48,003 nt of DNA from Bacteroidota bacterium (GCA_020047715.1 JAIFNN010000069.1:1-48003), one strand, 5' to 3'; counted from the stretch's first letter, positions 39,382 to 47,442 are shown. Numbers and translations: made by a program. The notes: a model not told the origin generated them from the sequence alone.

Positions 39382-39442
39382 AATGATATAAGTTAATCTC
39401 CAAATTTTGTAATGCTTTCCCTTTATAACGGGCGCAACTTTG
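39382..39442 (+). promoter_or_regulatory. Island promoter 1 (21-bp-period direct repeat + CAnCTTTG)
   Basis: AATGATATAA-N11-AATTTTGTAA-N22-CAACTTTG upstream of ATG 39479. Confidence 0.75.
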
Positions 39443-39478
39443 CCGGGTGAAAATGCTTTCACATTTAAATCCATAAAA

Positions 39479-40477
39479 ATGAAGCCTAATAAAGTATTAG
39501 CAAGCATTGCAATTGCACTTGCTGTTTTATTTACGGGGTGTAAAGAAGACGATTTCGAGGAAGTCGACGGAATTTGCCCTATCGTTGTAACTACTGATCC
39601 TGCCAATCTTGCTACGTTTGTTTCTTTTAACCAGATAATATCTGCTACTTTTAATGCGAACATGGATCCGGTAACCTTTACTCCGGAATCTTTTAGCTTA
39701 CAAAGTGCAAAAAAACTTATCAGCAGCAAGCCTGGGTACCTTGTCCTATAATGCTGCCAGTAAAACAATGAGGTTTGTTCCTTCATCACCACTCGCCGAC
39801 AAGACAACTTAAACTGCAACCATTAAATCTACAGTTAAGGATTTAAGTGGAATTGGGTTACCAGGCAACTATGTATGGACTTTTAAAACAGGTGAAATAG
39901 TAAGTCAGAAAGTTATATTAACCGACCCGTTAAATCTGGCAACCAGGGTAGTGTTTGACAAAACTGTTTCAGCAACCTTCAGTGAATCCATGAACAGTGC
40001 AAGTCATACAGCAACAAGCTTTACACTTCACGAAGGTGCAAACCTGATCGATGGTCTCGTTTCGTATTCAGGTACATCAGCTTTGTTTATTCCTACAGCA
40101 GATCTTTCTGATAATACGCTCTATACGGCTACTATTACAACCGGAGCAGAAAGTATTACTGGCAACAATCTTAAGGCAAATTATGTATTGACCTTTTCAA
40201 CAATGAGCGCCGCCCCACTAATAATACTTACCGATCCACTGCAACTAGCTATAGATGTGGCTCTTGATAAAACGGTTACGGCAACTTTCAGCGAACCTAT
40301 GAATGGAACTACAATCACAGCCAGCAGTTTTACAATAAGCGAAGGATCGAATCCTGTTGCAGGTGTTGTTTCCTATTTTGGAACCGCAGCATCATTTAAT
40401 CCGGATTCTGACTTCCCGGAAGGTACCGTGTTCACAGCCAGAATTTCAACAGATGTTATAAGTGCCTCAGGCACCGT
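39479..40477 (+). pseudogene. Ig-like (Big_5/SbsA-type) repeat lipoprotein, disrupted and 3'-truncated
   Basis: Lipobox FTG-C; three 'TDP....ATF....M' Ig repeats; frameshift near the A7 run 39709-39715; in-frame TAA 39810-39812; third repeat breaks off near 40477. Confidence 0.8.
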
Positions 40478-41101
40478 TTGCACAGCTACGTTTCTTTTAA
40501 TGCCGAGGGAGCTGAAAAAGCTTTTACTTCATGGTCGTTAGAGCTTAAAGATGAGAAGGCAACAGTACAAAGCTTTGGCCCTTATACTAAAGAAAGTGTT
40601 GCTATTCCCGGAAAAACTATATTGGGGAGCAGTCCATCGGGCAACTATGCGGCAACTATGATTGGGAAGACAAAAAGCGGAAAAACTGTAAAACAGGAGG
40701 CTCCTGTTCATATGGTTCTATGGACTCCGGCCGAAAGAGAAGAAGGCCTGAGATACAGTGTTATTTATGAGTTCAACAATTCTGATGCTATCGCGGTTTA
40801 TGAAAAGTATCTGACTGAGGTGGTTGCGCCAAAGATTCCCAAAGACGGCACCGTTATTTTACATGGACATACCGATGTTATTGGAGATGAGGCGCACAAC
40901 CAGGAATTGTCACTAGCCAGGGCTAATGATGTCAAGTCTATTCTGGAAAAGGCACTTGCAAAAGCCGGCAGAACCGATGTTGTGTTTGAAGTTTACGGAT
41001 TTGGCGAGGATGAGAGCCTTTCTCCCTTTAATAATGAGTATCCGGAAGAACGCTTTTACAACCGAAGTGTTGTGATTGATCTGCTTCCCCAGAAAATCTA
41101 A
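40478..41101 (+). pseudogene. OmpA-family protein, C-terminal fragment only
   Basis: GHTDVIG..HNQELSLARA..V, GFGE, NRSVVI OmpA_C motifs; no signal peptide; begins abruptly at the Ig-gene junction. Confidence 0.75.
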
Positions 41102-41121
41102 GAACTAAAACATTCTAGTAT

Positions 41122-41151
41122 AAAGGCCTCATGTCGAGGCCTTTTTTTTTT
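41122..41151 (+). terminator. Intrinsic terminator
   Basis: aaaggcctc-atgtc-gaggccttt followed by T-run. Confidence 0.88.
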
Positions 41152-41414
41152 AGTAAACGAAGGCATTGGCGTTCCTTAAATACAGAAATTCTATTTTTGT
41201 CTTACCGGATAACAATGAAATTGCAGTGAGAATTCGAAAGTCAGCAAATAGGGGCGAAGCACATCAATTATCACAAAAAACCAATAGGTTTAAATGATTC
41301 AATACATTCAACCCAACAACACTAATGCTGAATTGCATGAATGGATTTGCGCAATGGGCATTTTTTTTTGTATATTTCCGTATTTAATTTCCGTTGAATC
41401 CAATGTTTTGAGTT

Positions 41415-46700: not shown

Positions 46701-46872
46701 AGACTTTGAAACCCTTGCAAGAAAAGTCAAGGATTATGCCGGGACTCAGTTAATGATTGAAGATGTTTCCGAAATTGTTCTTCAGATTGAAAAAGTCTGT
46801 GTTCAGGCATGTGTTGAGTTGCAAGAAGAGTTCAATAATATTAAAAAAAAGCAAAATGGTTCAGGAAAATAA
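43735..46872 (+). CDS. Soluble hybrid histidine kinase: PAS, 21-aa repeat coil, PAS, PAS, HisKA, HATPase, REC, Hpt
   Basis: 3x SLIEAS.DPL PAS starts; FLSNMSHEIRTPMNAI; NLVSNAVKFT, DTGIGI, GGTGLGL; LMDLQMP; VHKM Hpt-like; no TM seen. Confidence 0.93.
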   Translation: MERTKTHGSQYASSLIEASLDPLVTINTEGEITDMNRAKILITGMERNELLGTSFFSYFTEPKKAQQLYLEVFSNGVFSSTPLTIRHKNGSLTDVLFNGSIYKDGKGNVVGAVLVARDTSEQKWAIELRAANKKLAFQNDEKEKRAQELIIANKELVFQNQEKEKRAAELIIANKELAFQNKEKEKRASELSIANKELAFQNNEKGKRAGELIIANKELVFQNSEKKKRADELIIADRELDFQNKEKDKQEKANSELRAYSNSANLASQYSLSLIEASRDPLITISPEGKITDMNEALAKITGISREKLTGTDFFEYFTEPKMARKVYKKVFAKGSVADSPLTLRHKNGKLTDVLFNGSVYKDDRGNVMGVVIVARDVTAQKVASHYARSLIEASLDPLFTISPAGKITDMNNASVKITGAPREKLIGSNFFDYFTNSNKARKVYKEVFAKGFVTNYPLTIKDHKLTDVLFNGSVYKDEQGNVLGAVVVARDITEQKRVANELTEAIVFAELATGLAEDAKRKAEKATQIAENAVKAKQQFLSNMSHEIRTPMNAIIGFTKVVLKTDLSAKQREYLTAIKMSGDSLIVLINDILDLAKVDAGKMTFEKVPFKMALSISAMIHLFETKIQEKNLKLFKEYDSKIPEVLVGDPVRLHQIILNLVSNAVKFTNKGNITVSVRLLSEDSEKVIIEFSVKDTGIGIAENKIDKIFENFQQASSATARLYGGTGLGLAIVKQLVVPQGGTISVSSKIDRGSVFSFVLPFLKTKAEAEEEPGVEEPDMEPKDIKVLVVEDIALNQLLMRTLLDDFGFECDIAANGKIAIDKLQSAHYDIVLMDLQMPEMNGFEATEYIRNKLYSKIPIIALTADVTTVDLAKCRAVGMNDYIAKPVDERLLYSKINELVKKKLLLAKAKDDNILTVKQVKCTDMGYLMSRTKSNPELMMQMITLYLEQTPPLISSMKKALRDKDWVLLHASVHKMIPSFAIVGINPDFETLARKVKDYAGTQLMIEDVSEIVLQIEKVCVQACVELQEEFNNIKKKQNGSGK
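44113..44490 (+). repeat. Six 63-bp / 21-aa coding repeats
   Basis: Consensus ELIIANKELAFQNxEKEKRAx, six copies. Confidence 0.92.
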
Positions 46873-47290
46873 AATTAAGCTTTTTCTGGTTGATGACGAT
46901 GAGTTGTATCTGAAGCTTCTGGAAATTGAACTTCTGGAAAATGCGGATTTGGTAATCGAAACTTACACAACGGGTGAGAATTGTATCCGTAACCTGGACC
47001 ACAATCCTGACCTTGTCGTCCTTGATTATCATCTCGATGGCGTTGAAAAAACTGCTATGAACGGTATTGAAGTATTGGATAAAATTAAGGCTTTCAACCT
47101 GAAGATCCCGGTTATTATGCTTTCAAGTCAGGATAAAATTGATGTGGCGGTCAATTGCATGCATCACAAAGCCTCAGAATATATCGTTAAAAGCGAAACT
47201 GCTTTTATACGTCTCCAACAATCCATGTCAAATATTTTTCATACTCAGAAAATAGAAAAGACATTAAGCTGGTATATGGAAAAGATGTAA
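46856..47290 (+). CDS. Stand-alone response regulator (REC only)
   Basis: LVDDD, VVLDYHLD, MLSSQ, YIVK; overlaps the kinase stop codon. Confidence 0.9.
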   Translation: MVQENKIKLFLVDDDELYLKLLEIELLENADLVIETYTTGENCIRNLDHNPDLVVLDYHLDGVEKTAMNGIEVLDKIKAFNLKIPVIMLSSQDKIDVAVNCMHHKASEYIVKSETAFIRLQQSMSNIFHTQKIEKTLSWYMEKM

Positions 47291-47326
47291 GCATATATCA
47301 ATTAAGCGTTTTAGTAAGGATTTCCC

Positions 47327-47372
47327 ACCCTGCTGTTTTTTGGCGTAAGCTAAAAATACAGCAGGGTTTTTT
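47327..47372 (+). terminator. Intrinsic terminator
   Basis: accctgctgt...acagcagggt stem followed by T-run. Confidence 0.8.
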
Positions 47373-47381
47373 CAATGTGGG

Positions 47382-47442
47382 AATGATGTAACACTTTCCC
47401 ATAGTTGTGTAATGCTTTGCGCTTTAAACAGGTACACCTTTG
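47382..47442 (+). promoter_or_regulatory. Island promoter 4
   Basis: AATGATGTAA-N11-AGTTGTGTAA-N22-CACCTTTG upstream of GTG 47474. Confidence 0.8.

Follow-up and report, generated by a model that had tools for sequence, protein, structure and literature searches.

The DNA considered here, called the window throughout, is a stretch of 48,003 nucleotides from a Bacteroidota bacterium (GCA_020047715.1 JAIFNN010000069.1:1-48003). Towards its right-hand end lies an island of genes, all on one strand, encoding lipoproteins, a cupin-like protein, a CsbD-like stress protein, two AraC-family proteins (AraC#1 and AraC#2), a hybrid histidine kinase and a receiver-only response regulator (Table 1). Four sites in this island, P1 to P4, look alike: in each, a box is repeated at a fixed period ahead of an octamer resembling the -7 element of Bacteroidota promoters. 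The initial annotation of the window took them for weakened promoters that depend on the island's AraC proteins. Our analysis places them in a cis-regulatory module that is almost certainly real and conserved, and in a regulatory system that appears to be conserved throughout the phylum. We interpret the sites as activator-dependent sigma-A promoters of a Bacteroidota-wide regulon, at which an AraC dimer would act by class II activation, and assign this interpretation a probability of about 0.75.

Table 1. Promoters and genes of the island, and further motif sites in the home genome (PWM, position weight matrix; PWM scores are leave-one-out; ORF, open reading frame).
Feature	Position	Strand	Description
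P1	39373-39442	+	distal operator 39373-39392, proximal operator 39401-39415; predicted start ~39447; PWM 40.0 bits
Big_5/OmpA lipoprotein gene, P1 target	39479-41101	+	Pfam Big_5 Ig-like domains, C-terminal OmpA; ATG 39479
AraC#1	41415-41975	+	186 aa; Pfam HTH_18 and HTH_AraC; 63% identity to AraC#2
P2	41966-42035	+	distal operator 41966-41985, proximal operator 41994-42008; predicted start ~42040; PWM 45.9 bits
Cupin-like gene, P2 target	42131-42469	+	112 aa; ATG 42131
P3	42500-42569	+	distal operator 42500-42519, proximal operator 42528-42542; predicted start ~42574; PWM 47.0 bits
csbD, P3 target	42607-42795	+	CsbD-like stress protein; Pfam CsbD 56.4 bits
Small membrane protein	42908-43117	+	69 aa; between csbD and AraC#2
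AraC#2, proposed activator	43125-43721	+	198 aa; Pfam HTH_18 62.9 and 58.4 bits, HTH_AraC
Hybrid histidine kinase, cytoplasmic	43735-46872	+	Pfam: three PAS, HisKA, HATPase, receiver; coiled-coil repeat region
Receiver-only response regulator	46856-47290	+	144 aa; Pfam Response_reg; without DNA-binding domain
P4	47373-47442	+	distal operator 47373-47392, proximal operator 47401-47415; predicted start ~47447; PWM 47.1 bits
Coiled-coil lipoprotein, P4 target	47474-47935	+	153 aa; GTG 47474
Home-genome site	C46:3531		downstream: DnaJ-type CbpA-like protein, MerR_2 CbpM-like protein, 136-aa ORF
Home-genome site	C46:3385		opposite strand; downstream: 113-aa ORF
Home-genome site	C46:11877		downstream: 292-aa protein of no known family
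Home-genome site	C46:11812		opposite strand; downstream: Gly-zipper-OmpA lipoprotein, then outer-membrane beta-barrel
Home-genome site	C46:13101		downstream: 158-aa protein
Home-genome site	C63:19836		downstream: DUF5692 membrane protein

Sites of one design in the island and the home genome

The four sites are present as the annotation described them, with box pairs at 39382/39403, 41975/41996, 42509/42530 and 47382/47403, a period of 21 bp in every case, and a -7 box of the form CAnCTTTG that follows the second box after exactly 22 bp in all four (CAACTTTG at 39435-39442 and again at 42028-42035, CATCTTTG at 42562-42569, CACCTTTG at 47435-47442). TGTGTG or TGTGGG stands upstream of three of them, and GCTCTG takes that place in the second. 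A box-N11-box pattern matches four times in the window, compared with 0.00 expected from 100 dinucleotide shuffles, and the pattern GTAA-N22-CANCTTTG also matches four times, with 0.05 expected and at most one match in any shuffle. Because both patterns were composed after the sites had been seen, we give more weight to the independent tests described below. What did not hold is the box length of 10 bp. In the alignment of sites each box spans about 15-20 bp and consists of two half-sites, and alignment of the home-genome sites shows the 10-bp box to be part of a longer element, TGTG(TG)AAT-n-ATGTAAC. Each operator carries a strongly conserved half-site, (A/G)TGTAAC, and a second half one helical turn upstream. 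This second half reads TGTGTGAAT in the distal operator; its proximal counterpart, A(A/G)TT, is weaker. The coordinates of the parts of P1 were fixed from the alignment of 171 distinct sites described below. The distal operator of P2 overlaps the stop codon of AraC#1; between 41101 and 41415, upstream of AraC#1 itself, no match to the PWM reaches 14 bits.

The whole 3.78-Mb assembly of the home genome was searched with regular expressions, which located additional sites on contigs C46 and C63, and then with a weight matrix made from seven sites. Leave-one-out scores ranged from 40 to 54 bits. Ten sites score at least 23.9 bits, three of which lay outside the training set, while the remainder of the genome does not exceed 20.5 bits. 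The annotation's candidate regulon of look-alike sites was therefore retained but not its confinement to the island, since the genome holds ten sites rather than four. The ORFs that follow the beta-barrel gene downstream of C46:11812 resemble MlaE and MlaF by sequence look alone, outside the Pfam scan. A fifth match to the box pair, at C32:906, has neither a promoter part nor a PWM score and was not counted.

Two repeats were noted in passing. A tandem array of at least eight units at G000 C124:4173-4370 (minus strand) has a 21-bp period, with TGTAA followed by a GC-containing core, and differs from the promoters in architecture. On G000 contig C63 (L002 3760-3810), CTTT is repeated about a dozen times in a microsatellite some 30 bp upstream of the operator.

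Conservation of the operators and the core promoter

Other genomes provided further independent tests. The best 80 of more than 552 relatives of AraC#2 in a collection of species-representative genomes, 74-86% identical to it, define a set of loci whose records are labelled Bacteroidales, Chitinophaga, Flavobacterium, Cytophagales, Prolixibacteraceae and Ignavibacteria. These 1.2 Mb were scanned with the operator columns only of a matrix built from eight home-genome sites. The scan returned 259 sites of at least 18 bits (248 of at least 22 bits), against 1 in a mononucleotide shuffle, and they fall in 76 of the 80 loci; the motif does accompany this AraC subfamily in other Bacteroidota, as the annotation had anticipated. 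In a count of distal and proximal core pairs that is independent of the matrix and allowed periods of 15-36 bp and gaps of 8-29 nt, 201 of 202 pairs have the 21-bp period, and the single exception has 34. The spacer to TTTG among the 248 sites is 22 bp in 174, 21 in 12, 23 in 2 and of another length in 13. Conservation extends to columns outside the matrix: 171 distinct sites show two further conserved stretches, AAATG (-74 to -70) and CAC (-34 to -32), and A at -72, a column not used for selection, occurs in 94% of sites.

The placement of the sites supports the view that they are promoters. In the other genomes they are intergenic, with a median stop-free stretch of 168 nt as opposed to 1113 nt at random positions, and for 237 of the 248 an ORF beginning with ATG starts on the same strand within 400 nt downstream, the median distance from -7 box to ATG being 44 nt. 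Look-alike sites might also be copies of one short DNA element, repeated or mobile, that has spread through the genome, as the presence of four sites within 8 kb of the window and the clustering of sites in islands would lead one to suspect. However, the boxes and the -7 element are all that is conserved, spacers and flanks are not, and the architecture precedes unrelated genes in 76 of 80 loci drawn from many families, with the co-orientation just described. The unconserved spacers led us to reject this explanation, whose probability is negligible. The idea of a known RNA family was rejected too, Rfam giving only one hit, elsewhere and at chance level (E = 0.76).

At many sites in loci L005-L094 a similar stretch follows about 8-16 nt after the -7 box and ends in GTGAAAAT or GTGGAAAT. 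Column statistics put G at 49% at the predicted start and A at 65% three bases later. The shared stretch may be a conserved start region or a 5' leader.

Sigma-A promoters of Bacteroidota carry TTTG at -33 and TAnnTTTG at -7. The window has a box of this kind, which the annotation had remarked on, ahead of rpsP (TACCTTTG, 5633-5640), 43 nt upstream of the start codon (ATG 5683). In P1 to P4 the A and TTTG of the -7 box are kept with their usual spacing inside the box, and all four have C in place of the first T. Among the 174 sites with the standard spacer, a set in which TTTG is given by construction, the box opens with C in 97, T in 51, G in 20 and A in 6; the second base is A in 167 and the fourth is C in 142. 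The consensus of the box is CAcCTTTG. For a generic comparison, NANNTTTG 8-mers were collected 12-110 nt upstream of 2063 long home-genome ORFs (n = 744). In these T comes first in 410 and C in 76, T being enriched 4.6-fold over the genome and C unenriched. C thus occupies the first position in 56% and the fourth in 82% of regulon boxes, compared with 10% and 22% of generic boxes, and we conclude that the C-first -7 box is a conserved property of this regulon. The annotation had described a box weakened by a T-to-C change; the replacement is borne out by these counts, and the weakening is what we infer from it.

PMC9723704, which lists six classes of sigma motif, places the -7 8-mer of a flavobacterium at -12 to -5. 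If that placement applies here, the proximal operator, which ends 22 bp before the -7 box, would occupy about -46 to -32, the normal place of the -33 element, and the distal operator about -74 to -50. The annotation had put the second box at the -33 position, and on the predicted start this agrees with our reading: the proximal site would abut or overlap the -35-equivalent element, as it does in class II activation. No TTTG is conserved at -33 among the 171 distinct sites, where the consensus from -36 to -30 is AACacTT, a part of the operator.

The systematic departure of the -7 box from T first, together with an AAC-containing element at about -36 to -34, could be taken to mean that an extracytoplasmic function (ECF) type sigma factor reads these promoters, with GTAAC as its -35 element, the CAnCTTTG region as its -10 element, and the two Cs reflecting its specificity. 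ECF promoters separate -35 and -10 by about 16-17 bp, and the 21-22 bp between AAC and the box exceed this distance. The A and TTTG of the sigma-A box are moreover kept at sigma-A spacing, the conserved cluster contains no sigma or anti-sigma gene, and the equally conserved copy of the box 21 bp upstream would have no role. We consider recognition by an ECF factor highly improbable.

The same core promoter bears on the sign of regulation. Some AraC-family proteins repress, and autoregulation is often negative, so that this AraC might mainly repress, or act as a dual regulator, at its sites. The sites, however, lie upstream of the -7 box and overlap neither that box nor the predicted start; the -33 element is absent and the -7 box falls short of its usual first T. 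A core promoter that is poor without help leaves little for a repressor to do, and repression or dual control is in our estimation very unlikely. Activation of transcription by this AraC is, by contrast, likely.

The AraC protein as candidate regulator

Within the 80 loci, no gene lies downstream of a site more often than that for AraC, with 52 genes in 50 loci. The gene directly after AraC encodes a kinase homologue in 64 loci, and in 62 the kinase gene is in turn followed by one for a receiver-only protein; where kinase or receiver is missing, the contig in most cases seems to break off shortly past AraC. Of the three proteins encoded by this conserved module, AraC alone is a DNA-binding protein. 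The kinase and receiver, which had no part in the annotation's account, belong to the system.

The phylum was sampled with 301 genomes, including the home genome. At a threshold of E 1e-30 or better, AraC has a match in 150 of them, and the full-architecture pattern occurs in 30; the same pattern read backwards has no hits in the 301. When the two tables are read together, 28 of the 29 pattern-bearing genomes other than the home genome are AraC-positive, and a single one of the 151 AraC-negative genomes carries the pattern. That exception, G015, is closely related to G020 and G025, and it has sites nearly identical to those of G020. A looser pattern failed to tell the groups apart, its reverse-read control giving a background of 0-4 hits in each genome, and the full-architecture pattern was used instead. 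The loose pattern often hit one stretch (GnGAATGGTGTAAT...GGnGCnGA...AATAA), found in many genomes (G047:C22:96121, G147:C13:107275 and G263:C2:70843, for example), which is probably part of a conserved coding gene and, as an operator, a false positive.

Variation in the motif points in the same direction. The three bases that follow TGTGTG covary with the first recognition helix: AAT occurs with NLFSEVQG and, in four loci, ATA with N(T/I)FSEVKG. The invariant TGTAAC half is paired with an invariant second helix. In these few, related loci the association between motif variant and one AraC recognition helix is suggestive. Taken together, the sites in 76 of 80 loci, the rank of AraC as the top target, the co-occurrence in 28 of 29 genomes and the half-site covariation support AraC-dependent promoters of the kind the annotation had in mind, and make it quite probable, as far as sequence comparison can tell, that this AraC binds the motif.

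The occurrence of the motif on the AraC operon in 50 loci would be expected of a mere target too. The boxes might instead be bound by another transcription factor, such as a DNA-binding response regulator, whose gene lies elsewhere and whose regulon would include the AraC cluster as no more than a conserved member; in G071 the largest cluster of sites lies on contig C1 and the AraC genes lie away from it on C11 and C4. We nonetheless find this alternative unlikely. AraC is the sole DNA-binding protein in the conserved module, a 21-bp repeat of two half-sites one turn apart fits a tandem pair of AraC proteins with two helix-turn-helix (HTH) motifs each, the motif variant tracks the AraC recognition helix, and the full architecture is found in only 1 of 151 genomes that lack AraC.

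Several observations weigh against AraC-dependent activation throughout the phylum. The strict pattern is absent from 121 of the 149 AraC-positive genomes other than the home genome, and family f29 has it in none of 49 genomes, though 45 of them have AraC. Near strong orthologues in ten such genomes there is only a variant motif, such as TGTGATATATGTAAC; the variant sites score at least 19 bits in 7 of the ten loci and at least 14 bits in nine, and none reaches 14 in L093. In 47 of the 248 operator sites, TTTG is absent from the 40 nt scanned past the proximal box. The covariation comes from 4 related loci, and L090 departs from a simple Q-to-K rule. Co-occurrence cannot tell a regulator from a conserved member of its regulon, and because the genomes in the tallies are related to each other, the counts overstate their independence. 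The sequences show the architecture with its rigidity and conservation, the placement of the sites ahead of genes, the association with the AraC-kinase-receiver cluster and the predicted folds. AraC binding, activation, the start points, control by a phosphorelay and the physiological role are what we infer, the last of these, as a stress role, from gene names only.

An AlphaFold model of the AraC protein, made from 44 orthologues (pLDDT 84), divides AraC#2 into a beta-alpha-beta-beta-alpha-beta domain (residues 1-61), a long linker helix (64-83) and a seven-helix AraC domain with two HTHs. The double HTH is recognised both by Pfam (HTH_18, HTH_AraC) and by Foldseek, which matches the C-terminal part to AdpA, SoxS, MarA and Rob (TM-scores 0.66-0.84). 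The N-terminal part matches HMA metallochaperones (0.52-0.69) and not the CheY-like receivers found at the N-terminus of YesN/AraT-type proteins; no solved chain among the Foldseek matches unites HMA-like and AraC parts. Pfam finds no HMA domain in the protein. Of the CxxC typical of HMA proteins only C13 is invariant, position 10 being Ser in at least 90% of the 44 sequences, and AraC#1 carries the CxxC, with both C10 and C13. A sequence search of the PDB matched AraC over the HTH domain only, NCBIfam has no model for the subfamily (all matches fall far under their cut-offs), and matches in the ESM Atlas bear generic AraC cluster names only.

In the window the AraC gene opens with GTG. In most of the loci L005-L084 the conserved start, MKLYIKY, has no ATG, the nearest being codon 8. 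The AraC gene probably uses a non-ATG start; its ESM Atlas record begins at residue 8.

In the kinase, positions 271-767 of the 779 in the NCBIfam ArcB profile align to residues 526-1027, the C-terminal region being covered through the HPt part. The receiver has a complete phospho-acceptor set (D13, D14, D57 and K112, all invariant) and an invariant C-terminal WYM tail. Structure prediction of a complex between AraC and the receiver gave a score of 0.00 (mark 0.32) and was counted neither way. At about residues 150-280 of the kinase ORF read from 43681, between the first and second PAS domains, there are about six tandem coiled-coil units of some 22 residues, resembling ELIIANKELAFQNxEKEKRAxEL.

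We propose that two AraC subunits of about 190 aa would occupy the two tandem sites, each placing its two HTHs in grooves one turn apart, and that the promoter-proximal subunit would contact RNA polymerase. This contact would offset both the lack of a -33 element and the weakness of the -7 box, a mode of action known as class II activation. P3 probably drives csbD and the tightly spaced genes after it, namely those for the membrane protein, AraC#2, the kinase and the receiver; a P3 transcript that reached AraC#2 would make P3 an autoregulatory promoter, and AraC would then activate its own operon in a positive loop. The activity of AraC may be set by the co-transcribed soluble PAS hybrid kinase, with its HPt-like end, and the receiver-only protein. 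Whether the phosphorelay controls AraC is, to our minds, an even call.

Downstream of the inverted arms at 47327-47336 and 47358-47367, which we noticed by eye between the receiver gene and the distal box of P4, there is a T run. This GC-rich inverted repeat (47327-47373) looks like the terminator of the AraC-kinase-receiver operon and adjoins the P4 distal box.

Targets, physiological role and relation to known systems

Genes of the kinds that follow P1 to P4 recur behind the motif in other genomes. CsbD ranks second among the targets, with 24 genes in 20 loci; Big_5 or ice-binding-like lipoproteins are targets 18 times in 11 loci, coiled-coil OmpA proteins near AraC 16 times, and a cupin in 8 other loci. 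The 69-aa membrane protein has a homologue in 10 of the 80 loci and is a motif target in 4, and the P4-target lipoprotein has a homologue in 6 of the 80. Additional recurrent targets are DUF5670 and other small membrane proteins, receiver proteins, MlaE, outer-membrane beta-barrels and a GH130 enzyme. A cluster in G071 has nine sites of at least 20 bits within about 31 kb, seven of which fit the strict pattern; its targets include a PepSY-like protein, a protein with three BON domains, an ABC/HlyD pair, a P-type cation ATPase, a DUF4136 lipoprotein and an aldehyde dehydrogenase. These targets suggest a general, osmotic or envelope stress response, although the odds that the regulon serves stress are about evenly balanced.

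Apart from polysaccharide utilisation, little of gene regulation in Bacteroidota has been worked out. To our knowledge these bacteria are without RpoS, SigB and EcfG, and we know of no general stress regulator established for them. The targets overlap in kind with the general stress regulons run by RpoS in E. coli, SigB in Bacillus and EcfG-NepR-PhyR in Alphaproteobacteria: CsbD/YjbJ, BON/OsmY-like, Gly-zipper and OmpA-like lipoproteins, CbpA/CbpM and aldehyde dehydrogenase. The overlap with the RpoS and SigB regulons in particular is offered as a lead. PAS kinases and single-domain receivers feed EcfG, and also SigB in B. cereus. Unlike those systems, which switch sigma factors, the output here would be an activator working with the housekeeping sigma factor.

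A more speculative step, which we regard as doubtful, is that the module is the long-missing general stress response of Bacteroidota, run by three proteins that amount to a split hybrid two-component system (HTCS), coupling receiver to AraC in a new way, instead of a sigma swap. The HPt end of the kinase would pass phosphate to the receiver-only protein, which would act in trans on the HMA-like domain of AraC, and the activator would turn on CsbD, OsmY-like, OmpA-like, CbpA and other protective genes. The promoters would be silent without the activator owing to the missing -33 element and the C at -12, and the invariant C13 could add a redox or metal input.

In its mode of action the proposed regulator is a familiar one. 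AraC/XylS class II activators bind tandem direct repeats, as do XylS at Pm, RhaS, AraC at I1-I2 and MelR, and our system shares with them the two-HTH domain, a pair of directly oriented sites some two helical turns (~21 bp) from each other, a proximal site reaching the -35-equivalent region, and poor core elements. It differs in having an HMA-like domain of 60 residues where those proteins have a cupin or other sugar-binding domain for effector binding or dimerisation, in its Bacteroidota -33/-7 promoter, in its phosphorelay partners in place of catabolic genes, and in its stress and envelope targets. As in the HTCS of Bacteroides, which belong to the same phylum, and in YesN and AraT, phospho-signalling is tied to an AraC-type output, and YesN, AraT and an HTCS protein are among the nearest relatives of known structure that the DNA-binding domain has. 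Here, however, the kinase-receiver-HPt protein, the receiver and AraC are three proteins from three genes and not one polypeptide, the kinase has no HTH, AraC has no receiver domain, and the kinase is cytoplasmic with PAS sensors, in contrast to the periplasmic sugar sensor of an HTCS. MarA, SoxS and Rob are the best structural matches to the modelled DNA-binding domain (TM-score up to 0.84), and they appear to share with it two half-sites one turn apart and a role related to stress. They act as monomers on a single site in varied orientations and at varied distances, whereas the present promoters as a rule have two sites, a fixed period of 21 bp and a fixed distance of 22 bp to the -7 box.

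Neither the motif nor the module nor the regulon was found described in the full-text literature, searched mostly outside subscription journals, which accords with the annotation's description of the regulon as undescribed. The yjbJ RNA motif of PMC11109978 is unrelated to this element. What appears new is the element, a regulon that spans the phylum, the AraC architecture with its HMA-like domain, the pairing of this AraC with an output-less receiver, and the conserved C-first -7 box.

The analysis yields a cis-element of fixed geometry, a candidate regulator conserved across orders at 74-86% identity, a linked phosphorelay and a list of predicted targets, and with these in hand the hypothesis is open to immediate test in any carrier that can be cultured. 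The motif permits prediction of the regulon in thousands of uncultured genomes and offers a design of tightly activator-dependent promoter for genetic tools in the phylum. The combination of an HMA-like AraC with an output-less receiver raises the question of a possibly new way of coupling a phospho-signal to AraC.

Some of the island's target genes are less straightforward than Table 1 implies. The gene behind P1 is split into three ORF pieces (39440-39751, 39951-40541 and 40478-41101), and Big_5 sequence runs on in another frame past 39751, with an in-frame stop near 39810; the gene is either decayed or subject to an assembly error in a genome of 254 contigs. The cupin-like protein behind P2 matches Pfam EutQ and Cupin_2 weakly, under the cut-offs, and the lipoprotein behind P4 has a weak match to the NCBIfam stress-protein model sll1863 (25.1 bits, cut-off 35). 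Just upstream of the island, at 31499-39013, a motif-free ORF of 2504 aa contains long internal repeats and, by eye, looks like a large secreted surface protein.

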